Assembly: GCF_022846255.1 (NCBI RefSeq)
Contig: NZ_AP025682.1
Source of the DNA: Escherichia coli
GTDB lineage: Bacteria; Pseudomonadota; Gammaproteobacteria; Enterobacterales; Enterobacteriaceae
Length of the DNA stretch: 64,000 bases
Reading direction: 5' to 3' (one strand)
How positions within the stretch are numbered: position 1 is the first letter of the stretch; each line of letters starts with the position of its first letter. Shown here in pieces: positions 22,626 to 56,904 of the stretch. The notes beneath the pieces were generated by a model. That model was not told the DNA's origin and made no database searches. It was given only the letters and a program-made list of their open reading frames with translations. A program made the position numbers and the translations under genes.

Positions 22626-22720
22626 GTTCATGCCGGATGCGGCGTGAACGCCTTATCCGGCCTACAAAAAATCTTGCCAATTCAATATATTGCAGGACCA
22701 CGTAGGCCTGATAAGCGTAG
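22626..22720. repeat. BIME: two inverted REP units
   Basis: gccggatgcggcgtgaacgccttatccggcctaca ... gtaggcctgataagcgtagcgcatcaggca, classic REP palindromes in opposite orientation downstream of fepA. Confidence 0.7.
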
Positions 22721-23427: not shown

Positions 23428-23428
23428 T

Positions 23429-24364
23429 TCAAAGCATTTCCCGTGCCTGAGCTGCAATTCCGGCAGCATCAAATCCATGATGCTGACGCAACCACCCACG
23501 ATCCGCCGCTGCGGCATATTCTCCATCCATAATGCCTGCGCGTTTTAATTTGATCCCCGTTCCGGCCTCTGCCAACACTTCCGCGACCAGGCTACCAAGG
23601 CCGCCATTGACGTTATGCTCTTCAACCGTCATCACTGCTTTGCATCCTTTTAACGCTGCCAGCAATGCTTTGGTGTCGCATGGGCGAATCGACGGTACGC
23701 TGACAACTGTAGCCGCGATACCAGACTGCGCTAAAAGTTCTGCGGCATCGACCACTTCATGAACGGTAGAGCCTGTGGCTACCAGCGCCAGTTCGCTGCC
23801 CTCGCGCAAAGTCACCACGGCACCTGGTACAAATCGGTAGTCCTCATCGTGGATTTCCGGCAGGGCTTTACCGTCCATACGGATATAAACAGGCCCCTGA
23901 TAGCGAAGAGCATAATCAATCACCTGACGGCACTCCCGAGGTGAAGACGGGGCAAAGATTTGAATATTGCCGAAACCACGCATAACCGCAATGTCATCAA
24001 TCGCATGATGCGTGCTCGCCAGCGGTCCATAACTCGCCCCGGCATTCAGACCAAACAATTTTACGTTGGTAAAGTTGTAGCAGACATCAACCTTGATTTG
24101 CTCGTTAGCGCGAGCGATAAGAAATGGCGCGGCATTGCAGGTAACAGCCACCTTGCCGCCCAGCGCCAGCCCGGCAGCGGCACCAACCATGCTCTGTTCG
24201 GCAATACCCACATTCACCAGTCGGTCAGGAAATTGCTTAATAAAGGGAGCAATTTTTGCCGTAGACGTTGAATCAGCCACTACAGGCACCAAATCGATCC
24301 CCTCATTTACGGCATCGATAAATGCCTGAACCATCACATTTGCCAGATGTTCACTGTTACGCAT
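23429..24364 (-). CDS. Transketolase C-terminal (pyrimidine-binding) subunit of a split transketolase
   Basis: 311 aa, MRNSEHLANVMVQAFIDAVNEGIDLVPVVADSTSTAKIAPFIKQFPDRLVNVGIAEQSMVGAAAGLALGGK...; overlaps the N-subunit gene by 8 bp. Confidence 0.85.
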   Translation of the reverse strand: MRNSEHLANVMVQAFIDAVNEGIDLVPVVADSTSTAKIAPFIKQFPDRLVNVGIAEQSMVGAAAGLALGGKVAVTCNAAPFLIARANEQIKVDVCYNFTNVKLFGLNAGASYGPLASTHHAIDDIAVMRGFGNIQIFAPSSPRECRQVIDYALRYQGPVYIRMDGKALPEIHDEDYRFVPGAVVTLREGSELALVATGSTVHEVVDAAELLAQSGIAATVVSVPSIRPCDTKALLAALKGCKAVMTVEEHNVNGGLGSLVAEVLAEAGTGIKLKRAGIMDGEYAAAADRGWLRQHHGFDAAGIAAQAREML

Positions 24365-25187
24365 CTTTGAGTTCCTTCAGTGCCTGTTCAATTTCATCGC
24401 CTTTCGGCACCCGGTGATGCCATTCCGCACGCCCTTGTATAAAGGAAATGCCTGCCCCTTTAGTGGTGTGGGCAATCACCACATTCGGTTTGCCTTCCTG
24501 TTTAAGCCCTTCAAGCGTCGCGACAACCGAAGCCATATCATTGCCCTGACATTCGGTAACCTGCATACCGAATGCCAGCCATTTCTCTGCCAGAGGATCG
24601 GTGTTCATGATTTCGCGCGTTGGCCCGGCTAATTGCAGATTATTTTTGTCATTAATAATGACCAGGTTATCAAGCCCGTAATGCGCCGCCGCCAGTGCAG
24701 CTTCCCAGTTACTGCCCTCAGCCAGCTCACCATCGCCAGTAATTAAGAAGATACGACGACGGCTTTGACTTTTTTTCGCCGCCAGCGCAAGTCCTACAGC
24801 CACAGGGAAACCATGTCCCAGTGCTCCGGTATTCAGTTCAATACCTGGCGTTTTTTGCCGAACCGGATGGCCGGGTAAGTGTGAATTTGGCTGCTGATAA
24901 GTGGAAAGCCATTCCAGTGGGAAGAATCCTGCTTCCGCCAGCACGCAGTAGTAACATCCAACAGCATGGCCTTTTGACTGAATGTATATATCCCGGTCAT
25001 CGTCGTGAAGGCGATCCGGGGCGACATTGAGAATACGAAAATAGAGTGCGGTCAGTAATTCAACCTGAGAGAGATCGGCCCCAGTGTGTCCACCTGCCGG
25101 GCTATTGGCATTTAAGCGCACGATATGGCAGCGTACCGCCCGCGCTTTACGCTCAAGGGTCTGGATATCATAGCTATAGGGATTCAT
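24357..25187 (-). CDS. Transketolase N-terminal (thiamine-diphosphate binding) subunit
   Basis: 276 aa with TPP-binding GDGELAEGSNWEAALAAAHYGLDNLVIINDKN motif; first gene of a two-gene unit divergent from the regulator. Confidence 0.85.
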   Translation of the reverse strand: MNPYSYDIQTLERKARAVRCHIVRLNANSPAGGHTGADLSQVELLTALYFRILNVAPDRLHDDDRDIYIQSKGHAVGCYYCVLAEAGFFPLEWLSTYQQPNSHLPGHPVRQKTPGIELNTGALGHGFPVAVGLALAAKKSQSRRRIFLITGDGELAEGSNWEAALAAAHYGLDNLVIINDKNNLQLAGPTREIMNTDPLAEKWLAFGMQVTECQGNDMASVVATLEGLKQEGKPNVVIAHTTKGAGISFIQGRAEWHHRVPKGDEIEQALKELKDA

Positions 25188-25367
25188 TTAATACCTCTGA
25201 ATTTATTTTCAACATGGAATATTTATTCCACCGGGGACTAAAAAAACCAGAAATCCCAGGGCGTTGCGCGGCAAGACTTACGCTGCTGCATCATACTCAG
25301 GAACATTCTGCCTCCTTACACCGTCAGTTACGTGTCCGGGTAATCATCAGTTGACCTGATATCATCT

Positions 25368-25381
25368 TGAATATATATTCA
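25368..25381. promoter_or_regulatory. Palindrome TGAATATATATTCA in the transketolase / regulator divergent promoter region; candidate operator
   Basis: Direct reading; the same 12-bp core GAATATATATTC recurs at 26729..26740 upstream of the kinase-transporter operon. Confidence 0.45.
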
Positions 25382-25549
25382 ATAATGATTCTTTATTCAA
25401 TTATGCCGCCTGTTTTTTATTTTTGTCCATCGCTGATTTTAAGGATTGGTTAAAGTTAGAACTCCATCACACTTAACTGTCTTCTTTTTTCGCGTATGAT
25501 AAAAGCCTCTAAGATAAGGGCGGTACGTTAATGATTTACGGGGAAATAT

Positions 25550-26500
25550 ATGGCTAAGCAGGATGAACAGCGGCTACTGGTGAAGATCGCCACTCTTTAC
25601 TATCTTGAGGGGCGAAAACAGTCTGACATCGCCCAACTTCTCTCGCTTTCTCAGTCATTTATCTCCAGAGCGCTAACCCGTTGCCAGAAAGAAGGCGTGG
25701 TTAAAATCAGCGTTGTCCAGCCGTCAAATATCTTTCTCAATCTGGAAAAAGGCATTGAAGAGCGTTACGGCATTAAACAAGCGATTGTTGTCGATACCGA
25801 AGATGATGCCACTGACCATACCATTAAACGTGCTATCGGCTCTGCCGCCGCGCACTATCTGGAAACGCGTTTAAGACCAAAAGATTTCATTGGCGTCTCT
25901 TCCTGGAGTTCTACGATTCGCGCGATGGTCGATGAAGTTCACGCCCAAAACTTAAAAGCCAGCGGCGTTATTCAGCTGCTGGGCGGCGTGGGGCCAAACG
26001 GCAATGTGCAGGCAACTATTTTGACACAGACCCTGGCCCAGCATCTGAATTGCGAAGCCTGGTTGCTTCCTTCTCAAAGCATTGAAGGTTCGGTAGAAGA
26101 GAAAAAACGCCTGGTGGCAAGCCAGGATGTGGCTGACGTTATCGCCAGATTTGACGACGTCGATATCGCCATTGTCGGCATCGGTATCCTTGAACCCTCG
26201 CAGTTGCTAAAAACCTCGGGCAACTATTATCACGAGGATATGTTACAGGTACTGGCGGATCGCGGTGCTGTGGGCGATATCTGCCTGCACTACTACGATA
26301 AACATGGTCAGCCCGTGTTGCAGGACGATGAAGATCCAGTGATTGGTATGGCACTGGATAAAATCAAAAAATGCCCGAATGTGGTGGCACTGGCGGGCGG
26401 CAAAGACAAAGTTGCCGCCATCAAAGGCGCCATGCAGGGTGGTTATATTGATGTTTTGATCACTGATTTCCCCACCGCCAGAATGCTGATTGCGGATTAA
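25550..26500 (+). CDS. SorC/DeoR-family sugar-binding transcriptional regulator
   Basis: 316 aa; N-terminal HTH (QSDIAQLLSLSQSFISRALTRCQKEGVV) and C-terminal sugar-phosphate-binding domain typical of SorC/DeoR/EryD regulators. Confidence 0.85.
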   Translation: MAKQDEQRLLVKIATLYYLEGRKQSDIAQLLSLSQSFISRALTRCQKEGVVKISVVQPSNIFLNLEKGIEERYGIKQAIVVDTEDDATDHTIKRAIGSAAAHYLETRLRPKDFIGVSSWSSTIRAMVDEVHAQNLKASGVIQLLGGVGPNGNVQATILTQTLAQHLNCEAWLLPSQSIEGSVEEKKRLVASQDVADVIARFDDVDIAIVGIGILEPSQLLKTSGNYYHEDMLQVLADRGAVGDICLHYYDKHGQPVLQDDEDPVIGMALDKIKKCPNVVALAGGKDKVAAIKGAMQGGYIDVLITDFPTARMLIAD

Positions 26501-26523
26501 TCCTCTCCTCCCTTTCTTCTGCC

Positions 26524-26552
26524 CGCCTTTGCGAAAAAATCTTCTCGCAAAG
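26524..26552 (+). terminator. Hairpin downstream of the regulator gene; candidate intrinsic terminator
   Basis: cctttgcgaaaaaatcttctcgcaaagg forms a 9-bp stem; the 3' flank is not strongly T-rich, so strength is uncertain. Confidence 0.35.
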
Positions 26553-26646
26553 GCGCTTGCTTAAAAATCCTTTAATATCAATAAACTGAAATGATTCAAC
26601 AATCCTGTTTCTCGAGGCTTTCTCACCCTGTCACCACGCTTCTAAG

Positions 26647-26662
26647 TGTGATAGCCAGCACA
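26647..26662. promoter_or_regulatory. CRP-like site TGTGA-N6-GCACA upstream of the kinase-transporter operon
   Basis: tgtgatagccagcaca; 4/5 + 5/5 match to the CRP half-sites TGTGA/TCACA; about 190 bp upstream of the kinase start. Confidence 0.35.
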
Positions 26663-26728
26663 TTTGATGATTTTTTCTCTAGCTCAGGAAGAATAATCTG
26701 GCTAAGGTATAAATAAATAATCAGCATC

Positions 26729-26740
26729 GAATATATATTC
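26729..26740. promoter_or_regulatory. Second copy of the GAATATATATTC palindrome; candidate operator of the kinase-transporter-dehydrogenase operon
   Basis: Direct reading; identical 12-bp core to 25369..25380. Confidence 0.45.
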
Positions 26741-26850
26741 ACGCCTTAACACAAAATGTCACAGCAGGGCCTGATGAAGTAATAACGTGACCATGAGGAA
26801 CGCCTCATCTCCTTCCACGCCAGGATGCAATGTGACTCAGGAGACTACCT

Positions 26851-28371
26851 ATGTTTGCAGGAAATAAAGAGTTCGTTGTTGCGTTGGATGAGGGTACCAC
26901 CAATGTAAAAGCCATCGCACTTGATGGTTTCGGTAACGTGGTGGCGAAGTTTTCTCAACCACTGGCTATTCAGACGCCACGTGAAGGCTGGGTTGAGCAA
27001 TCCGGGGAAGCGTTAATCTCTGCCTCGCTTGATGTTATTGCCCAGGCCATCAACCACGTGGGGGCAGAAAATGTAGCGGCTCTGGCTATCAGTAATCAGC
27101 GTGAAACGGCTATCGGCTGGTATCGTCAGAGTGGAAAACCACTCAATGCGGCGATTACCTGGCAATGCACGCGCAGTGCAGAGTTTTGTGAAACACTTCG
27201 TCGCGAGGGCAAAGAGCAGCAAATTAAAACGACTACAGGCCTGCCTATCGCCCCGCTATTTTCCGCGTCCAAGATGCGTTGGCTACTGGAATCTACACCT
27301 GAGGGTGTGCAACTTGCCGACCAGGGTGAAATTTGTCTCGGCACCATTGATGCCTGGTTGCTATGGAACTTGACTGCTGGCGATTCATTTTGCTGCGACT
27401 ACTCTAACGCCGCGCGAACTCAATTACTTAACCTGAAAACAGGCGAGTGGGATGAGGAAATGCTGGCGTTGTTTCACATCCCACGCGCTGCATTGCCAGA
27501 AATTAAACCTTCCAGTGGCCTGTTCGGTTATACCCGAGGACTTAAAACAATTCCGGATGGTATTCCCGTCATGGCGATGGTGGGCGATTCTCACGCCGCT
27601 CTTTTTGGTCATGCGTTGGGAGAAGCGGGATGTGTGAAGGCGACCTATGGGACCGGTTCTTCCGTCATGGCCCCCGTCAACTCTGCTCAGTGTGATATCG
27701 CCACACTTGCCACAACCATTGCCTGGCATGATGGCGAAAATATTATTTACGGTCTGGAAGGAAATATCCCCCACACCGGCGATGCCGTGGCATGGATGGC
27801 TGACAGCACCGGTTTAAGTGAACTGACAGACGCGGAGCTGGCCCACGAACTGAATACCCTGCCAGCCTCAGTGGATTCGACTATGGGTGTTTATTTTGTT
27901 CCTGCTCTCACTGGCCTGGGCGCGCCATGGTGGGATGACAGCGCTCGCGGCGTGGTGTGTGGCTTAAGCCGTGGCGTAAAGCGCGCGCATTTGATTCGTG
28001 CCGCAATGGAATCAATCACTTATCAAATTGCAGATGTAGTGGAGGCAATGCAACAGCATGATGATTTTCACTTATCGGCGTTAATGGTGGATGGCGGCCC
28101 GACCAAAAATGACTGGTTGATGCAATATCAGGCGGATCTGCTGGGTTGCCCGGTGATGCGCAGTGATGTGCCAGAGCTTTCAGCCATTGGTGCGGGCCTG
28201 CTCGCCCGCAAAGCGCTTATCCCCGGTACCGTTGCAGATTTAAAAGCGTTATTAACTGAACACAGTGAATTTAAACCGGACATGGCGCGTCATCAGCGAC
28301 TGCAAAAGAGATGGCAGGAGTGGCGTCATGCGGTAAACAGAACATTATGGAAACCGGCATCGTCAATTTGA
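26851..28371 (+). CDS. FGGY-family carbohydrate kinase (xylulokinase / glycerol kinase-like)
   Basis: 506 aa, MFAGNKEFVVALDEGTTNVKAIALDGFGNVVAKF...; FGGY N- and C-terminal domain signatures. Confidence 0.85.
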   Translation: MFAGNKEFVVALDEGTTNVKAIALDGFGNVVAKFSQPLAIQTPREGWVEQSGEALISASLDVIAQAINHVGAENVAALAISNQRETAIGWYRQSGKPLNAAITWQCTRSAEFCETLRREGKEQQIKTTTGLPIAPLFSASKMRWLLESTPEGVQLADQGEICLGTIDAWLLWNLTAGDSFCCDYSNAARTQLLNLKTGEWDEEMLALFHIPRAALPEIKPSSGLFGYTRGLKTIPDGIPVMAMVGDSHAALFGHALGEAGCVKATYGTGSSVMAPVNSAQCDIATLATTIAWHDGENIIYGLEGNIPHTGDAVAWMADSTGLSELTDAELAHELNTLPASVDSTMGVYFVPALTGLGAPWWDDSARGVVCGLSRGVKRAHLIRAAMESITYQIADVVEAMQQHDDFHLSALMVDGGPTKNDWLMQYQADLLGCPVMRSDVPELSAIGAGLLARKALIPGTVADLKALLTEHSEFKPDMARHQRLQKRWQEWRHAVNRTLWKPASSI

Positions 28372-28474
28372 CGAACAAGACTAACCAACGGAAGGAGAAT
28401 ACCGGCCCATAAATAATTCAGGCTTTACGTTGTTTCACCGTACCCGACAATAACAACACAGAGAGAACATTGTC

Positions 28475-29410
28475 ATGAAATTACGTTTAACACTGTTAAC
28501 CGCTGCGACCCTGACTGCTCTTTCTTTTTCTGCTCATGCGGTAGAAAAAGGAACCATTATGATTATGGTCAATTCACTGGATAATCCTTATTACGCCTCG
28601 GAAGCGAAAGGTGCCAGTGAAAAAGCCCAGCAACTGGGATATAAAACGACCATTCTTTCTCATGGTGAAGATGTCAAAAAACAGAATGAACTGATCGATA
28701 CTGCAATTGGTAAAAAAGTTCAGGGCATTATTTTAGATAATGCCGACTCCACTGCCAGTGTTGCAGCCATTGAAAAAGCAAAAAAAGCAGGTATTCCCGT
28801 TATATTAATTAATCGCGAAATACCTGTGGATGATGTTGCACTGGTGCAAATTACCCATAATAACTTCCAGGCTGGCTCGGAAGTTGCCAACGTATTTGTC
28901 GAGAAAATGGGAGAGAAAGGAAAATATGCCGAACTCACCTGTAATCTTGCTGATAATAATTGCGTAACTCGCTCGAAATCTTTCCATCAGGTCATTGACC
29001 AGTTCCCTGAAATGGTCAGCGTGGCGAAGCAAGATGCCAAAGGCACGTTAATTGATGGCAAACGGATAATGGACAGTATTCTGCAAGCCCATCCCGATGT
29101 AAAAGGGGTGATTTGTGGTAATGGTCCGGTTGCACTGGGAGCTATCGCAGCACTGAAAGCAGCCAATCGCAATGACGTTATTGTTGTCGGCATTGATGGC
29201 AGTAACGATGAGCGCGATGCCGTGAAAGCCGAATCATTGCAGGCTACCGTGATGTTACAAGCGCAAGCCATTGCCGCGCAGGGGGTTACCGATTTGGATA
29301 ATTACCTGCAAAAAGGAGTTAAACCAGCCAAACAGCGGGTGATGTTCCGCGGCATTCTGATAACCAAAGATAACGCAGATAAAGTCCAGGATTTCAATAT
29401 CAAATCCTGA
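28475..29410 (+). CDS. Periplasmic sugar-binding protein of an ABC transporter (RbsB-like)
   Basis: 311 aa with signal peptide MKLRLTLLTAATLTALSFSAHA; periplasmic binding protein type I fold. Confidence 0.85.
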   Translation: MKLRLTLLTAATLTALSFSAHAVEKGTIMIMVNSLDNPYYASEAKGASEKAQQLGYKTTILSHGEDVKKQNELIDTAIGKKVQGIILDNADSTASVAAIEKAKKAGIPVILINREIPVDDVALVQITHNNFQAGSEVANVFVEKMGEKGKYAELTCNLADNNCVTRSKSFHQVIDQFPEMVSVAKQDAKGTLIDGKRIMDSILQAHPDVKGVICGNGPVALGAIAALKAANRNDVIVVGIDGSNDERDAVKAESLQATVMLQAQAIAAQGVTDLDNYLQKGVKPAKQRVMFRGILITKDNADKVQDFNIKS

Positions 29411-29456
29411 TCCCAGGTCGTTGCGCCCTCACAATGAGGGCGCAGAGGAGAATATT

Positions 29457-30077
29457 ATGGATAAAAAAGTCTGGCTGGCGCTGGCAATTCTGAGCCTGGG
29501 TGGATGTCGCATCGTCTCGCAGCAGGAACTTGCCGATCTCAAATCCCCGCCTAATCCTCATATGGCAAATATCGATCAGACCTGGCAGAAAAATATCGTG
29601 CCGCAGGTGGTAGAAAATGCACGTCCGGTTGCGGAGTTAATGGCGGCGCTACAGGCAGAAAAAGATGTCGATGCTGCCTGTAAAACGCTGGGCTATCGTT
29701 CTCAGGAAGAAAACCCGTGTATTTTCTACGTTAAGGTCGAAGGTGGCATCACCAATATTGATGCGAAATCCCGTAGCGGAAAAATGACCATCACAGATAT
29801 CAGCGGCACAAATATTGTCGTGCAGACGGGGCCAACTCTTCGCGGCACGCTTCTGCGAGATGCATATAAAGGTGCAAGCTATGAGCATTTTAACGATCAG
29901 GTTTTATTTGGTGAATATGGTCGTGCTATCAATGAGCAAGCCATCAATATGATTCAGTCGGCAAAGCTTAAAACCGGGGAAACGGTTCAGGTTTATGGCG
30001 TATTTTCTGCATGGGATATTCCGCAAACTATCCCGGATATAACGCCTGCGAAAATAGCCAGGGCGGGAGGCGAGTAA
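29457..30077 (+). CDS. DUF2291-like predicted lipoprotein embedded in the ABC transporter operon
   Basis: MDKKVWLALAILSLGGC... with a lipobox LSLGGC; start chosen at the internal Met with the signal peptide rather than the track start at 29421. Confidence 0.65.
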   Translation: MDKKVWLALAILSLGGCRIVSQQELADLKSPPNPHMANIDQTWQKNIVPQVVENARPVAELMAALQAEKDVDAACKTLGYRSQEENPCIFYVKVEGGITNIDAKSRSGKMTITDISGTNIVVQTGPTLRGTLLRDAYKGASYEHFNDQVLFGEYGRAINEQAINMIQSAKLKTGETVQVYGVFSAWDIPQTIPDITPAKIARAGGE

Positions 30078-30078
30078 T

Positions 30079-31623
30079 ATGTTGCCGCAAGAAATTGACA
30101 CCCCCCAGACTGATGAATCACCTGTAATCATAGAAACGCATGACTTATCGCGTATTTATCCGGGTGTGGTGGCGTTAGATAACGTGAATTACCGTGTCTA
30201 TCGCAATAGAGTGAATGTGCTTATTGGTGAAAACGGTGCGGGTAAATCCACAATGATGAAAATGCTGGCGGGGGTTGAAACACCTTCCTCAGGCAAGATC
30301 ATTCTTGATGGTAAAGAAGTTACCCTAAATTCTACCCATCAGGCCGAAAAACATGGAATTAGTATCATTTTTCAGGAACTGAATTTATTCCCGAATATGA
30401 ATGTCATAGATAACATTTTCATGGCGAATGAATTTTTTCAGAAAGGGAAGATTAACGAAAAATATCAGTATGAATTAGCCAAATCTTTATTAGAGAGACT
30501 GGAGTTGGACGTTGATCCCTATACCCAACTGGGAGAACTTGGTATTGGTCATCAGCAACTGGTGGAGATTGCCCGTGCCCTTTCTAAAGATACCCGGGTA
30601 CTGATTATGGATGAACCGACCTCGGCCCTCAGCCAGTCGGAAGTCAAAGTACTTTTCAATGTGATCGCACAACTGAAGCGCCGTGGTGTCACCATCATTT
30701 ATATCTCCCACCGTCTGGAAGAGTTGATGGAGATTGGCGATTTCATCACCATTTTCCGTGATGGTCGCTTTATTAGTGAACGCGCAGTGAGCGATGCCAG
30801 TATTCCGTGGATCATCGCACAAATGGTCGGTGATAAGAAAAAACATTTTGATTATCAACCAGCTACACAAGGTGACACTGTACTGGCGGTACTGGGGTTA
30901 ACGGCGCTGCATCCCAGCGGTGGTTACAAACTCAATGATGTGACATTCAACCTGCGTAAAGGCGAAGTTATCGGCATTTACGGCTTGCTGGGCGCAGGAC
31001 GTACTGAGCTATTTAAAGGACTGGTGGGCCTGATGCCCTGTCAGAGTGGGAAGATCCTGCTTAATGGTGAAACCATCGACAAATGCCATTTCCAGGCGCG
31101 GCTCAAAAAGGGGCTGGCGTTGGTGCCAGAAGATCGCCAGGGCGAAGGCGTCGTTCAGATGATGTCGATTCAGTCCAATATGACGCTATCCGATTTCAGC
31201 CTGCAAGGTTTTCGCCGTGCCTGGAAATGGCTGAATCCGCAAAAAGAGAGCGCCAGTGTGAAAGAGATGATCCAGCAACTGGCGATCAAAGTCAGTGATG
31301 CCGAACTCCCTATTACCTCACTCAGCGGCGGTAACCAGCAAAAAGTGGTACTTGGCAAAGCGTTGATGACCCAGCCACAGGTGGTGTTTCTTGATGAACC
31401 CACACGCGGCATTGATGTTGGCGCAAAAACCGACGTCTATCAGCTGGTGGGAAAAATGGCACAACAGGGGCTGGCAGTCATGTTCTCTTCTTCAGAACTC
31501 GATGAAGTCATGGCACTGGCAGATCGCATTCTGGTGATGGCTGATGGCCGTATTACCGCTGATCTACCCCGGGGCGAAGTCACCCGAGAGAAACTGATCG
31601 CGGCTTCAACACCTCAAGATTAA
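30079..31623 (+). CDS. Sugar ABC transporter ATPase with duplicated ATP-binding domains (RbsA-like)
   Basis: 514 aa; Walker A GENGAGKST in the first half, a second nucleotide-binding domain, signature LSGGNQQK. Confidence 0.9.
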   Translation: MLPQEIDTPQTDESPVIIETHDLSRIYPGVVALDNVNYRVYRNRVNVLIGENGAGKSTMMKMLAGVETPSSGKIILDGKEVTLNSTHQAEKHGISIIFQELNLFPNMNVIDNIFMANEFFQKGKINEKYQYELAKSLLERLELDVDPYTQLGELGIGHQQLVEIARALSKDTRVLIMDEPTSALSQSEVKVLFNVIAQLKRRGVTIIYISHRLEELMEIGDFITIFRDGRFISERAVSDASIPWIIAQMVGDKKKHFDYQPATQGDTVLAVLGLTALHPSGGYKLNDVTFNLRKGEVIGIYGLLGAGRTELFKGLVGLMPCQSGKILLNGETIDKCHFQARLKKGLALVPEDRQGEGVVQMMSIQSNMTLSDFSLQGFRRAWKWLNPQKESASVKEMIQQLAIKVSDAELPITSLSGGNQQKVVLGKALMTQPQVVFLDEPTRGIDVGAKTDVYQLVGKMAQQGLAVMFSSSELDEVMALADRILVMADGRITADLPRGEVTREKLIAASTPQD

Positions 31624-31640
31624 TCAGGCTGGAATTTCTT

Positions 31641-32708
31641 ATGAATCAGAAATATATGATCTATATGTACCTGTTGAAAGCCAGAACGTTTATCGCTCTG
31701 CTGTTAGTGATCGCCTTCTTTAGCGTGATGGTGCCTAACTTCCTGACGGCCTCTAACCTGCTGATTATGACTCAACACGTTGCGATTACCGGGCTGCTGG
31801 CAATCGGAATGACGCTGGTGATCCTGACAGGCGGCATCGATCTTTCCGTCGGCGCGGTAGCGGGGATCTGCGGAATGGTTGCCGGGGCTCTGCTAACAAA
31901 CGGCCTGCCATTGTGGAGCGGCGATATTATTTTCTTCAACGTACCGGAAGTGATCCTCTGCGTGGCGGTATTTGGCATTTTAGTGGGACTGGTGAATGGT
32001 GCGGTAATCACCCGCTTTGGTGTCGCGCCCTTTATCTGCACCCTCGGTATGATGTACGTCGCCCGTGGCTCTGCCCTGCTGTTTAATGATGGCAGCACTT
32101 ACCCCAATCTCAACGGCATGGAGGCACTGGGCAACACGGGTTTCGCCACCCTTGGTTCTGGCACGTTTTTAGGCGTTTATTTGCCAATCTGGCTGATGAT
32201 TGGCTTTTTGATTTTAGGCTACTGGATCACGACTAAAACGCCGCTCGGTCGTTATATCTATGCCATTGGTGGCAATGAATCTGCCGCGCGACTGGCAGGC
32301 GTACCCATCGTAAAAGTCAAAGTGTTCGTCTATGCGTTCTCCGGATTATGCGCCGCATTTGTCGGTTTGATTGTTGCCTCGCAGCTGCAAACCGCTCACC
32401 CAATGACCGGCAATATGTTCGAAATGGATGCTATCGGTGCCACGGTTCTTGGTGGAACTGCGCTGGCAGGTGGTCGGGGACGTGTCTCTGGCTCGATTAT
32501 CGGTGCCTTTGTCATTGTCTTCCTCGCCGATGGCATGGTGATGATGGGGGTCAGTGATTTCTGGCAAATGGTCATTAAAGGCCTCGTTATCGTCACCGCC
32601 GTGGTAGTCGATCAGTTCCAGCAAAAATTGCAAAACAAAGTCATTTTGATGCGTCGCCATGAAGAAAAGATGGCCGCCGCACCTGCCGTAAAACCGCTTT
32701 CCAGTTAA
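31641..32708 (+). CDS. Sugar ABC transporter permease (RbsC-like)
   Basis: 355 aa polytopic membrane protein of the monosaccharide ABC permease family. Confidence 0.85.
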   Translation: MNQKYMIYMYLLKARTFIALLLVIAFFSVMVPNFLTASNLLIMTQHVAITGLLAIGMTLVILTGGIDLSVGAVAGICGMVAGALLTNGLPLWSGDIIFFNVPEVILCVAVFGILVGLVNGAVITRFGVAPFICTLGMMYVARGSALLFNDGSTYPNLNGMEALGNTGFATLGSGTFLGVYLPIWLMIGFLILGYWITTKTPLGRYIYAIGGNESAARLAGVPIVKVKVFVYAFSGLCAAFVGLIVASQLQTAHPMTGNMFEMDAIGATVLGGTALAGGRGRVSGSIIGAFVIVFLADGMVMMGVSDFWQMVIKGLVIVTAVVVDQFQQKLQNKVILMRRHEEKMAAAPAVKPLSS

Positions 32709-32761
32709 TTAACATCATTCCGCCGGGCATTAAATTGCCCGGCTTATACAGGGGAAAAAAT

Positions 32762-33559
32762 ATGCAACGTAATTTTCAGGGTAAGACTGTAGTTATTACC
32801 GGGGCATGCCGGGGAATTGGGGCCGGGATCGCTGAACGCTTCGCCCGCGATGGCGCAAATCTGGTGATGGTTTCTAACGCTGCACGCGTGCATGAAACTG
32901 CTGAGCAACTGCGCCAATGTTATCAGGCTGACATTTTGTCATTAGAAGTCGATGTGACAGATGAAGCGCAAGTACAGGCACTCTATGAACAAGCGGCTGC
33001 ACGTTTTGGCAGCATCGATGTTTCCATTCAGAATGCAGGCATTATCACCATCGATTATTTTGATCGAATGCCGGCTGCTGATTTCGAAAAAGTGCTGGCG
33101 GTGAACACTACGGCAGTCTGGCTCTGCTGCCGGGAAGCAGCCAAATATATGGTGAAACAAAATCACGGCTGCCTGATCAACACCTCTTCTGGCCAGGGAC
33201 GTCAGGGGTTTATCTATACCCCACACTATGCAGCCAGCAAAATGGGTGTGATCGGCATTACGCAAAGCCTGGCGCACGAGTTAGCGCAGTGGAATATCAC
33301 TGTTAACGCCTTCTGCCCTGGTATTATCGAAAGCGAAATGTGGGACTACAACGACCGCGTATGGGGAGAAATTCTCAGTACCGATGACAAGCGTTATGGC
33401 AAAGGCGAGCTTATGGCGGAATGGGTGGAAGGTATTCCGATGAAGCGTGCCGGTAAACCTGAAGATGTTGCCGGACTGGTTGCCTTCCTCGCCTCTGACG
33501 ATGCGCGTTATCTCACCGGTCAAACCATCAACATCGACGGCGGCCTGATTATGTCGTAA
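32762..33559 (+). CDS. Short-chain dehydrogenase/reductase (polyol / sugar dehydrogenase-like)
   Basis: MQRNFQGKTVVITGACRGIGAGIAERFA...; TGxxxGIG Rossmann motif and catalytic YxxxK; ATG at 32762 preferred over the upstream TTG-initiated track start. Confidence 0.8.
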   Translation: MQRNFQGKTVVITGACRGIGAGIAERFARDGANLVMVSNAARVHETAEQLRQCYQADILSLEVDVTDEAQVQALYEQAAARFGSIDVSIQNAGIITIDYFDRMPAADFEKVLAVNTTAVWLCCREAAKYMVKQNHGCLINTSSGQGRQGFIYTPHYAASKMGVIGITQSLAHELAQWNITVNAFCPGIIESEMWDYNDRVWGEILSTDDKRYGKGELMAEWVEGIPMKRAGKPEDVAGLVAFLASDDARYLTGQTINIDGGLIMS

Positions 33560-33591
33560 TGCCCCTGCGGGCTACTAAGAGAGATATCAAA

Positions 33592-34377
33592 ATGATCGCA
33601 AAAGATTTTGCTCAACAATTGTTTGATCTCCACGATCGCGTCGCCTTTGTCACTGGCGCAGGTAGCGGTATCGGACAAATGATCGCTCTGGCTTTAGCCA
33701 GCGCAGGCGCACGAGTGGTGTGTTTTGATCTACGGGAAGATGGCGGACTCAAAGAGACGGTTAATCATATCGAAGCACTTGGCGGACAAGCCTTGTATTA
33801 CACGGGCGATGTTCGGGAATTGAGAGATCTTCGCGCAGCAGTCGCTCTGGCAAAAACACATTTTGGTCGTCTGGATATTGCCGTAAACGCCGCTGGAATC
33901 GCTAACGCAAACCCGGCGCTGGAGATGGAAAGCGAGCAATGGCAACGCGTTATCGATATCAACCTGACTGGTGTGTGGAATTCCTGTAAGGCGGAAGCCG
34001 AGTTAATGGTAGAGAACGGAGGCGGCTCGATTATAAATATTGCGTCAATGTCCGGGATTATCGTCAATCGCGGTCTGGAACAGGCTCACTACAACAGCTC
34101 CAAAGCAGGCGTGATTCATTTATCTAAAAGTCTTGCGATGGAATGGGTGAGTAAAGGGATCCGTGTGAACTCAATCAGTCCAGGATATACCGCAACACCA
34201 ATGAATACCCGACCTGAAATGGTGCATCAGACTCGGGAGTTTGAAATCCAGACGCCGATTCAGCGGATGGCGAAAGTGGAAGAGATGGCGGGTCCAGCGC
34301 TGTTCCTTGCCAGCGATGCGGCGTCGTTCTGCACTGGTGTTGATCTGGTGGTCGATGGTGGTTTTGTCTGCTGGTAA
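33592..34377 (+). CDS. Second short-chain dehydrogenase/reductase
   Basis: MIAKDFAQQLFDLHDRVAFVTGAGSGIGQMIALALA...; SDR motifs; start at 33592 preferred for its upstream gagag Shine-Dalgarno, with 33559 as alternative. Confidence 0.8.
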   Translation: MIAKDFAQQLFDLHDRVAFVTGAGSGIGQMIALALASAGARVVCFDLREDGGLKETVNHIEALGGQALYYTGDVRELRDLRAAVALAKTHFGRLDIAVNAAGIANANPALEMESEQWQRVIDINLTGVWNSCKAEAELMVENGGGSIINIASMSGIIVNRGLEQAHYNSSKAGVIHLSKSLAMEWVSKGIRVNSISPGYTATPMNTRPEMVHQTREFEIQTPIQRMAKVEEMAGPALFLASDAASFCTGVDLVVDGGFVCW

Positions 34378-34486
34378 AAATGGTTTCGCCCGCAGCCATC
34401 ACTGACCGCGGGCGAAAGTGTAAAGCAGGTGCCTTACCACCCTGACCTGACAACCGGATATGCGGGGATTGCTCCCCGCACAACGG

Positions 34487-34639
34487 CTACTTCTTCGGTT
34501 CGTAAGCGAGAACAACCTTAAACTCAATATTACGTTCCTTTACGGTAAACTCACACAGCGAGTCTCCGACCAGAAGCGTAAATCCCAGCACCGTTAAACA
34601 CAGCACTATGACTGCCACAAGGGCATATTTCGTCAGCAT
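34487..34639 (-). CDS. hokE: Hok-family small membrane toxin, copy 1 (variant with V at the position where copy 2 has A)
   Basis: [50 protein letters not shown], 50 aa; Hok family signature; overlapped by mok-like ORF 34551..34739. Confidence 0.8.
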
Positions 34640-34739
34640 GTTTATATTGCCTCCATGCGAAGAAGGGACTACCATCCAAATTGTTCAGGTTTGGGTAGGT
34701 AGCCCCAAGGTTGATAGAAATATCGTCCTGGGGCTTCAT
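34551..34739 (-). CDS. mokE: mok-like overlapping reading frame, copy 1
   Basis: 62-aa ORF overlapping the hok start in a different frame, as in hok/mok/sok loci. Confidence 0.5.
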
Positions 34740-34990
34740 CTTTCCAGACCTCAGAGTAAACCTGAAACCGGAAAGCTTCAGGCACCCGCAGTTATCTTAC
34801 CCTTCCTTAGCAAAATAGCTGTTTATTTATACAGTGAGTCCTGTTTAGGACTTTTCACCTGTATTATCGCCCATGCCAGTAAAACGAAATCGCCCGCAGC
34901 CATCTCTGACTGCGGGCGAAAGTGTAAAGCAGGTGCCTTACCATCCTGACCTGACAACCGGATATGCGGGGATTACTCCCCGCACAACGG

Positions 34991-35143
34991 CTACTTCTTC
35001 GGTTCGTAAGCGAGAACAGCCTTAAACTCAATATTACGTTCCTTTACGGTAAACTCACACAGCGAGTCTCCGACCAGAAGCGTAAATCCCAGCACCGTTA
35101 AACACAGCACTATGACTGCCACAAGGGCATATTTCGTCAGCAT
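34991..35143 (-). CDS. hokE: Hok-family small membrane toxin, copy 2
   Basis: [50 protein letters not shown], 50 aa; the copy adjacent to ybdK. Confidence 0.85.
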
Positions 35144-35243
35144 GTTTATATTGCCTCCATGCGAAGAAGGGACTACCATCCAAATTGTTCAGGTTTGGGT
35201 AGGTAGCCCCAGGGTTGATAGAAATATCGTCCTGGGGCTTCAT
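35055..35243 (-). CDS. mokE: mok-like overlapping reading frame, copy 2
   Basis: 62-aa ORF overlapping the hok start in a different frame. Confidence 0.5.
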
Positions 35244-35579
35244 CTTTCCAGACCTCAGAGTAAACCTGAAACCGGAAAGCTTCAGGCACCCGCAGTTATC
35301 TTACCCTTCCTTAGCAAAATAGCTGTTTATTTATACAGTGAGTCCTGTTTCGGACTTCTCATTTAATCAACTGAAGCTGAACCCGTTTTTTTCTGCATGC
35401 CTCAATCGTCAAAATTCTTCGCCGCCAGCCAGCTCTGCCATAACTTGTCACATTGCAAAAGTAGCCAAATTGCTTCAGTCACAATCAGTTCTCCATCACC
35501 AAAAAAAGAAACATTCCAGAACTTCCGCATCTCACCCAGCCGCTCCCACTTCTATACTGAATAGAAAACGCCAACATAA

Positions 35580-36707
<1,128 letters not shown>

Positions 36708-56827: not shown

Positions 56828-56904
56828 TGGCGCGCCCTGCAGGATTCGAACCTGCGGCCCACGACTTAGAAGGTCGTTGCTCTATCCAACTGAGCTAAGG
56901 GCGC
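56828..56904 (-). tRNA. argU: tRNA-Arg (UCU), argU
   Basis: The reverse complement reads GCGCCCTTAGCTCAGTTGGATAGAGCAACGACCTTCTAAGTCGTGGGCCGCAGGTTCGAATCCTGCAGGGCGCGCCA: cloverleaf with TCT anticodon and CCA end. Confidence 0.95.

Follow-up and report, generated by a model that had tools for sequence, protein, structure and literature searches.

The hok/mok/sok system of plasmid R1 combines a toxin of the Hok/Gef type with an out-of-frame mok reading frame, a cis-encoded antisense RNA, Sok, of ~60–64 nt, and fold-back pairing between the 5′ and 3′ ends of the toxin mRNA. Here, we describe a related locus in a stretch of 64,000 nucleotides of Escherichia coli DNA (assembly GCF_022846255.1, contig NZ_AP025682.1), hereafter referred to as the window, in which two hokE units lie head to tail beside the gene ybdK. 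It is highly probable that the pair represents a two-unit allele of the strain-variable chromosomal hokE/mok/sokE type I toxin–antitoxin array, and that both units are structurally complete. The locus shares with the R1 prototype a toxin of the Hok/Gef family, a mok frame that overlaps hok out of frame, a predicted Sok lying across from the region where mok translation is initiated, and fold-back pairing within the mRNA. It differs from R1 in being chromosomal, in having a LexA box and in its tandem arrangement.

[quoted passage not shown] The ldrABC-rdl, ibs-sib and zorO/zorP-orzO/orzP loci are likewise head-to-tail modules of toxin and antisense RNA within one intergenic region, with toxins that belong to families other than Hok (PMC2887945, PMC3919570). 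A few nucleotide differences suffice to make the antitoxins of zor-orz target-specific (PMC3919570), whereas the Sok recognition regions in the window are identical. Within the Hok family itself, ‘islets’ of two to six copies generated by local duplication account for 13.5% of the chromosomal hok genes in Escherichia (bioRxiv 10.1101/2025.08.07.668861), and in strain NRG857c a homologue of hokE and its duplicate, spaced by 504 bp, have been described as Hok-2.1 and Hok-2.2 (PMC7232551). The arrays of NRG857c (hok-2.1/hok-2.2), ST131, O157:H7 and FDAARGOS_536 share with the window the same unit, the same position and a period of ~502–504 bp.

A single hokE locus is present in strain K-12 (hokE/sokE, b4415/b4835). 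It has the same site by ybdK and the same mRNA architecture as the locus in the window; its LexA box is identical and its Sok homologous. K-12 HokE and the Hok of the window are 98% identical, with A8 in the former and V8 in the latter. However, K-12 has one unit, in which the insertion sequence (IS) IS186 occupies a hairpin of the 3′ untranslated region (UTR) and separates off the fold-back element and the terminator, whereas both units of the window are free of IS elements. The K-12 unit also represents a different leader class, being 1 nt shorter, with the mok ATG in frame with hok and five differences in the 5′ region of Sok. With one IS186-disrupted unit, K-12 is a poor reference for the hokE locus.

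Anatomy of the two hokE units

Judged from its position between entD and ybdK and from exact protein identity, the locus is the hokE orthologue. It abuts ybdK, as hokE does in K-12, and entD lies on its other side, beyond an 11-kb island. The anatomy, homology and synteny of the array, as well as its frequency in the population, are directly observed. The two 471-nt cores (Table 1) differ by eight substitutions and no indels, i.e. they are 98.3% identical by pairwise alignment and BLAST, and a repeat search returns them as a direct repeat with a start-to-start distance of 504 bp. Tandem Repeats Finder reports nothing at the array, which is not evidence against the repeat because the period exceeds the program's maximum of 500 bp. 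On the mRNA strand, the short spacer between the units holds the T-tract of the unit B terminator. A preliminary description of the region had proposed a tandem duplication of the hokE/mokE locus and suggested a self-alignment; the alignment, the adjacency to ybdK and the identity of the HokE protein all agree with that proposal. Its coordinates and sequence details were likewise correct, among them the intact 50-aa Hok open reading frames (ORFs), the mok frames, the GC-rich hairpins and the one-residue difference in Hok, all of which are present.

Table 1. Positions of the hokE array and its parts in the window (unit A, distal; unit B, proximal to ybdK)
Feature	Position	Strand	Remarks
hokE unit A (distal), complete from terminator to promoter region	34386–34856	-	471-nt core
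hokE unit B (ybdK-proximal), complete locus	34890–35360	-	471-nt core
Inter-unit spacer, ‘beta’ type, 33 nt, unique	34857–34889	.	no second copy in the region
hokE-A coding sequence, 50 aa, V42 variant	34487–34639	-	intact ORF
hokE-B coding sequence, 50 aa, A42 (commonest HokE allele)	34991–35143	-	intact ORF
mok-A, 62 codons, begins upstream of hok, overlapping and out of frame with it	34551–34739	-	intact
mok-B, 62 codons, overlapping and out of frame with hok	35055–35243	-	intact
Predicted SokE-A antisense RNA, 61 nt	34683–34743	+	alignment to K-12 sokE (b4835)
Predicted SokE-B antisense RNA, 61 nt, perfect terminator stem	35187–35247	+	alignment to K-12 sokE (b4835)
Intrinsic terminator, unit A	34384–34417	-	15-pair stem with one G-U pair, tail CCATTTTTAC
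Intrinsic terminator, unit B	34890–34919	-	13-pair stem, tail TTTCGTTTTA
3′ fold-back-inhibition element, unit A	34427–34434	-	AGGCACCU
3′ fold-back-inhibition element, unit B	34931–34938	-	AGGCACCU
mRNA 5′ end, unit A	34780–34787	-	GGGUGCCU, partner of AGGCACCU
mRNA 5′ end, unit B	35284–35291	-	GGGUGCCU, partner of AGGCACCU
LexA (SOS) box, unit A	34817–34836	-	CACTGTATAAATAAACAGCT; CTGT-N8-ACAG core 34819–34834
LexA (SOS) box, unit B	35321–35340	-	identical to unit A box; core 35323–35338
Gene-conversion-like tract in unit B	minimal 35045–35294, maximal 34976–35350	-	nine central diagnostic sites distal

Residue 42 is the sole position at which the two Hok proteins differ (discriminating base 34515 in A, 35019 in B), and the two mok products likewise differ at one residue (L11 in A, P11 in B). 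The mok frame begins 48 nt from the 5′ end of the transcript, and hok another 100 nt downstream. UniProt HOKE_ECO57 and WP_000956465.1 have the same sequence as the copy B protein. The V42 protein of copy A matches Pfam PF01848 (HOK_GEF) over model positions 1–42 of 42 with E = 3e-8, a precomputed PF01848 match is on record for exactly this sequence, and the NCBIfam HokA and Hok-subfamily models hit it with E = 1e-9 to 1e-13, yet below their curated cut-offs (36–49 bits versus 73 and 89). The same V42 sequence is found exactly on 377 public contigs, in single-copy as well as two-copy contexts, under the NCBI name HokE. Overexpression of HokE was toxic in published assays (bioRxiv 10.1101/2025.08.07.668861).

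Two further observations concern the coding region. In K-12, the hokE mRNA is reported to undergo A-to-I editing (~40%) at the Y46 site, which changes Tyr to Cys (PMC12214031). Codon 46 of both window copies (34502–34504 and 35006–35008; TAC followed by G) keeps the TACG motif, the sole feature that points to possible editing here; local folding around the Y46 UACG, the TadA editing site, gave no significant hairpin (z about 0 to 0.5). On the opposite strand, ORFs of 113 aa (34608–34949, +) and 84 aa (35112–35366, +) run over hok and mok. Their counterparts in other genomes are labelled ‘hypothetical protein’ by the NCBI Prokaryotic Genome Annotation Pipeline (PGAP) and are often frameshifted or partial, and they are probably spurious calls over the Sok/leader region.

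With regard to the RNA elements, the preliminary description had expected an antisense Sok RNA on the plus strand of each unit, and at the level of sequence this holds, as predicted 61-nt RNAs align with K-12 sokE. Each would consist of a stem-loop, serving as the terminator hairpin, and a U-rich tail (UUCAUCUUU). The predicted folds have free energies of -25.6 kcal/mol for Sok-A and -28.7 kcal/mol for Sok-B (z = -3.9 for both). The two RNAs differ by one nucleotide (34708 versus 35212) and are identical in the recognition region.

For each hok transcript, the minimum-free-energy fold and the centroid fold both place the eight 5′-terminal bases (GGGUGCCU) in a duplex with AGGCACCU, which immediately precedes the terminator. 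The two 404-nt transcripts are predicted to fold at -179.7 and -176.1 kcal/mol, with z = -8.3 and -8.4 relative to shuffled sequences, and this modelled 5′/3′ pairing corresponds to the fold-back inhibition typical of hok mRNAs. Rfam model RF01794 scores 84.0 and 86.2 bits on the two units (gathering score 59), and its position 1 coincides with the inferred mRNA starts at 34787 (A) and 35291 (B). Both alignments are to the sense strand of the hok mRNA; they extend from its start to a point shortly beyond the hok start codon (34631–34787 and 35135–35291), and therefore support a conserved leader/Sok-target region rather than the Sok strand. Although named ‘sok antitoxin’, the model thus does not lie on the Sok-encoding strand, and strand calls made from it need care. 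Weak Rfam matches inside the units to Hammerhead_1 (21.9 versus 34 bits) and mir-1990 (21.2 versus 63 bits) are sub-threshold and were dismissed as chance.

The 3′ UTR of each unit also contains a hairpin, GCGGGGAG(C/T)AATCCCCGC on the minus strand (34462–34479 and 34966–34983), which has the form GGGG-N6-CCCC. This form is reportedly the preferred target of IS186. In K-12, O104:H4 and GPEC1186 (in both units of the latter), IS186 sits exactly at this hairpin and severs the fold-back element and the terminator. Both sites are free of IS186 in the window.

A feature overlooked by the preliminary description is the LexA box of each unit. In unit A, it is located ~30–50 nt upstream of the inferred mRNA start, and its 20-mer is identical to the sequence upstream of K-12 hokE. 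A search for the full 20-mer LexA consensus with up to three mismatches gave no match; the box has five mismatches and was found by the core pattern CTGT-N8-ACAG alone, which occurs three times in the 64 kb compared to 0.47 expected. The third occurrence (1683–1698, +; CTGTCAGAATAAACAG) may be the core of another LexA box or a chance match. hokE is listed among the genes with a LexA box (PMC6590174), and the heterology index of its box is 4.9 (PMC11228462). Directly upstream of the box, a hairpin with a 6-bp stem is conserved on the minus strand (34837–34852, AGTCCTAAACAGGACT, in A; 35341–35356, AGTCCGAAACAGGACT, in B). It reads AGTCC-N-AAAC-AGGACT, with N being T in unit A and G in unit B, and lies near the upstream end of the unit, the repeat running 4 nt beyond it to 34856 and 35360.

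How the array would work can be proposed by homology with hok/sok of R1 and hokE/sokE of K-12, on which we base the expectation that these alleles are transcribed, that Sok pairs with hok mRNA in vivo, that LexA exerts control and that the toxins are active. Each unit would be transcribed on the minus strand from the promoter region that holds the LexA box, the latter adding possible SOS control. The resulting mRNA of ~400 nt would be stable and translationally inert while its 5′ end is locked on the 3′ element; 3′ trimming would then activate it, and Hok, the 50-aa membrane toxin, could be made by coupling of its translation to that of mok. Sok, the short RNA from the plus strand, would pair with the leader at the mok initiation region and block translation. 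Hok, if made, would depolarise the inner membrane. Because the two Sok RNAs differ by one nucleotide, both very probably repress both hok mRNAs, and, the recognition regions being identical, a common pool of antitoxin should serve both units while the dose of the toxin gene is doubled.

Copy number across E. coli genomes

The frequency of tandem hokE was determined in 5,426 complete E. coli genomes, a collection biased towards clinical isolates, using 55-nt probes specific for the junctions between units and a probe for one unit (34487–34856). The one-unit probe has 8,361 places in 5,407 of the 5,426 genomes, with a median of two per genome. A 55-nt probe centred on the spacer of the window, which can match solely where two units are joined as they are here (beta junction), was found in 102 genomes, i.e. 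FDAARGOS_536 and 101 others, in every case with 100% identity. The equivalent probe from ST131 (alpha junction) was found in 2,399. Overall, two or more tandem units are present in ~44–46% of the complete genomes (~2,400–2,500 of 5,426). Counting duplications by query coverage was dropped, since this joins non-collinear pieces of single-copy genomes.

Individual strains differ accordingly in copy number: K-12 and CFT073 have one unit, ST131, O157:H7, A287 and FDAARGOS_536 have two, O104:H4 and GPEC1186 have two with IS186 in one or both, and APEC O2-211 and MFDS1019527 have three. PGAP names every copy hokE, and two or three are annotated in ST131, O157:H7, O104:H4, APEC O2-211 and MFDS1019527. 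The preliminary description had implied that the duplication is rare, a view at odds with these counts. As a polymorphism of E. coli, tandem hokE is common and has been both annotated and published. It is already known and ordinary, so that as a discovery it carries little weight and its presence in the window needs no special explanation. What the window does offer is a pair of IS-free, complete units with LexA boxes, which could be used to probe SOS inducibility and the function of chromosomal hokE.

Array history and alternative explanations

An alignment of 22 units from 12 loci contains 68 variable columns and yields a mosaic tree. The identity between units of the same array is higher in the window (98.3%) than in any other array sampled (94.5–97.7%). 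Arrays fall into two spacer families, of which beta comprises the window, FDAARGOS_536, GPEC1186 and, as a variant, MFDS1019527, and alpha comprises the rest. Alpha and beta spacers have little in common beyond the T-tract of the terminator, though the flanking units are 94–99% identical. All left boundaries, whether to a spacer, the entD flank or the island flank, break at one base, the foot of the terminator hairpin.

Thirteen diagnostic sites separate distal from proximal units in the two closest beta arrays. Unit A of the window is distal-type at all 13, and differs from the distal unit of FDAARGOS_536 at three sites. Unit B is a mosaic, with proximal-type bases at the four outer sites and distal-type bases throughout the nine central ones. 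The intervening tract covers the 5′ part of hok, mok, the Sok gene and the mRNA start. On this pattern, a gene-conversion tract of 250–375 bp was apparently copied from A to B, so that the regulatory core of the proximal unit came to match that of the distal unit. No complete RefSeq genome has the proximal unit of the window behind a beta spacer, the best match being 98.8% identical with a span 1 nt shorter. The array is old and shared across phylogroups, changing by unequal recombination (one to three copies) and by gene conversion. That the repeat could serve as a recombination substrate had been anticipated by the preliminary description, and both the variation in copy number between strains and the conversion-like mosaic of copy B fit this idea.

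The preliminary description had also considered that a single hokE locus might have been wrongly expanded to two copies during assembly. Repeats of this length can confuse short-read assemblers, all the more with units this similar, but the probability of such an artefact is negligible: eight fixed differences and a unique 33-nt spacer distinguish the copies, the identical junction recurs in 102 complete genomes and a related one in 2,399 more, and the array equals that of FDAARGOS_536 in length, base for base, apart from being common in complete genomes, annotated and published. A recent, strain-specific duplication of a single-copy hokE could account for the window having the most similar units among the sampled arrays, but is very improbable. 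The spacer is unlike the entD-side or the island flank, although its short start (‘CTCAC’/‘TTCAC’) is shared with some ybdK-side flanks; unit A has its orthologues in the distal units of FDAARGOS_536 and GPEC1186, and unit B keeps proximal-type bases at the outer diagnostic sites. Conversion within an old array is therefore the better account of how similar the units are, and both the artefact and the strain-specific event are excluded for practical purposes.

A third alternative, likewise an unlikely one, is that the array has one working unit, with unit A decaying through its private changes A42V in Hok, P11L in mok, which is also the source of an A-C mismatch in the Sok stem, and the G-U pair in the terminator. 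Two of the three differences from the FDAARGOS_536 orthologue do lie in Hok and in the Sok/mok hairpin, the predicted Sok-A fold is weaker by 3 kcal/mol, and several chromosomal hok loci are regarded as inactive in the literature. However, unit A has all its ORFs and RNA elements intact and shows neither a frameshift or stop nor an IS element. The recurrence of V42 on hundreds of contigs of both copy-number types marks it as a circulating allele rather than a lesion, and the change behind the Sok mismatch yields a G-U pair in the hairpin of the hok mRNA.

The interpretation of the array as two complete toxin–antitoxin units has to be weighed against several further points. The mismatch in the Sok-A terminator stem (34708 versus C34733) is one of them. 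In addition, a consensus scan of 34300–35500 returned no sigma-70 site, whether for hok or for Sok, in the two units, and the promoters were placed by homology and by eye; the hexamers read by eye upstream of SokE-A, TTGCCT (34647–34652) and TACCAT (34670–34675), are 17 nt apart and match the consensus at just 8 of 12 positions, under the threshold of the scan. As cited in bioRxiv 10.1101/2025.08.07.668861, earlier-tested chromosomal hok loci gave no post-segregational killing. The literature on SOS induction conflicts, in that hokE is listed as an SOS gene (PMC6590174) while K-12 hokE was neither induced by azidothymidine (AZT) nor lexA-dependent (0.47-fold and 0.89-fold, respectively; PMC11228462). 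The K-12 copy carries IS186 in its 3′ UTR. With respect to history, the proposed direction of conversion, from A to B, draws on just two close comparison genomes.

The units also fall into two leader classes. In class I, the fourth codon of mok is followed by an additional C (G on the plus strand, at 34725 and 35229 in the window), which results in the canonical out-of-frame mok of 62 codons. In class II, the K-12 type, the leader is 1 nt shorter and the mok ATG either runs in frame into hok (83 codons) or meets a stop after 17–22 codons. The classes differ at five positions within the first 20 nt of Sok (34687–34700 and 35191–35204 in the window). Both units of the window are class I, whereas six of the eight other multi-copy arrays sampled pair class I with one or two class II units; the arrays of O157:H7 PA20 and MFDS1019527 have no class I unit.

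Probes for the two Sok classes extend this comparison to the complete genomes. The class I probe has 2,928 places in 2,871 genomes, so that at most ~57 genomes have two class I units. The class II probe was found in 4,948 genomes, and these counts, together with those of the junctions, imply that most arrays are heterotypic. The homotypic I+I array of the window is uncommon, and this is the sole non-routine element of the feature.

As a tentative and rather doubtful suggestion, arrays might normally be heterotypic and, with the classes differing at five of the first ~20 Sok nucleotides and in the mok reading frame, could act as two non-cross-reacting toxin–antitoxin pairs, comparable to zorO/zorP-orzO/orzP; the window would then contain a rare homotypic array made by conversion. 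If so, the Sok RNAs of the window would both recognise both hok mRNAs and both units would keep the canonical out-of-frame mok, meaning that the array would double the dose of one specificity instead of providing two. The two leader/Sok classes and their recombination constitute a small natural system in which to study how duplicated type I antitoxins diverge in specificity.

Genomic neighbourhood

Gene order in the window comprises the ent/fep genes, the 11-kb sugar-utilisation island, hokE, hokE, ybdK-ybdJ-ybdF-nfsB, cus and nfr, and is collinear with E. coli FDAARGOS_536 over 42 kb at 98.7% identity. Across 33500–36000, none of the complete genomes exceeds 98.3% identity to the window. The island (~23428–34376) lies between entD and the distal hokE unit and encodes two transketolase subunits, a regulator, an FGGY kinase, a ribose-type ATP-binding cassette (ABC) transporter, a DUF2291 protein and two short-chain dehydrogenase (SDR) oxidoreductases. 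Of the 5,426 complete genomes, 585 carry the island, and 585 the arrangement island-hokE-hokE-ybdK. Unit A abuts the stop codon of an SDR gene of the island; this last stop codon (34375–34377) is 6–8 nt upstream of the hokE terminator hairpin, whose stem base is at 34384–34386.

Rfam gave two further matches elsewhere in the window. One, to the small RNA ES036 (CssrF), lies in the intergenic region between fepA and entD at 22668–22709 on the plus strand and scores 42.2 bits against a gathering score of 37.6; the other is a tRNA gene at 56831–56904 on the minus strand (Rfam, 72.1 bits).

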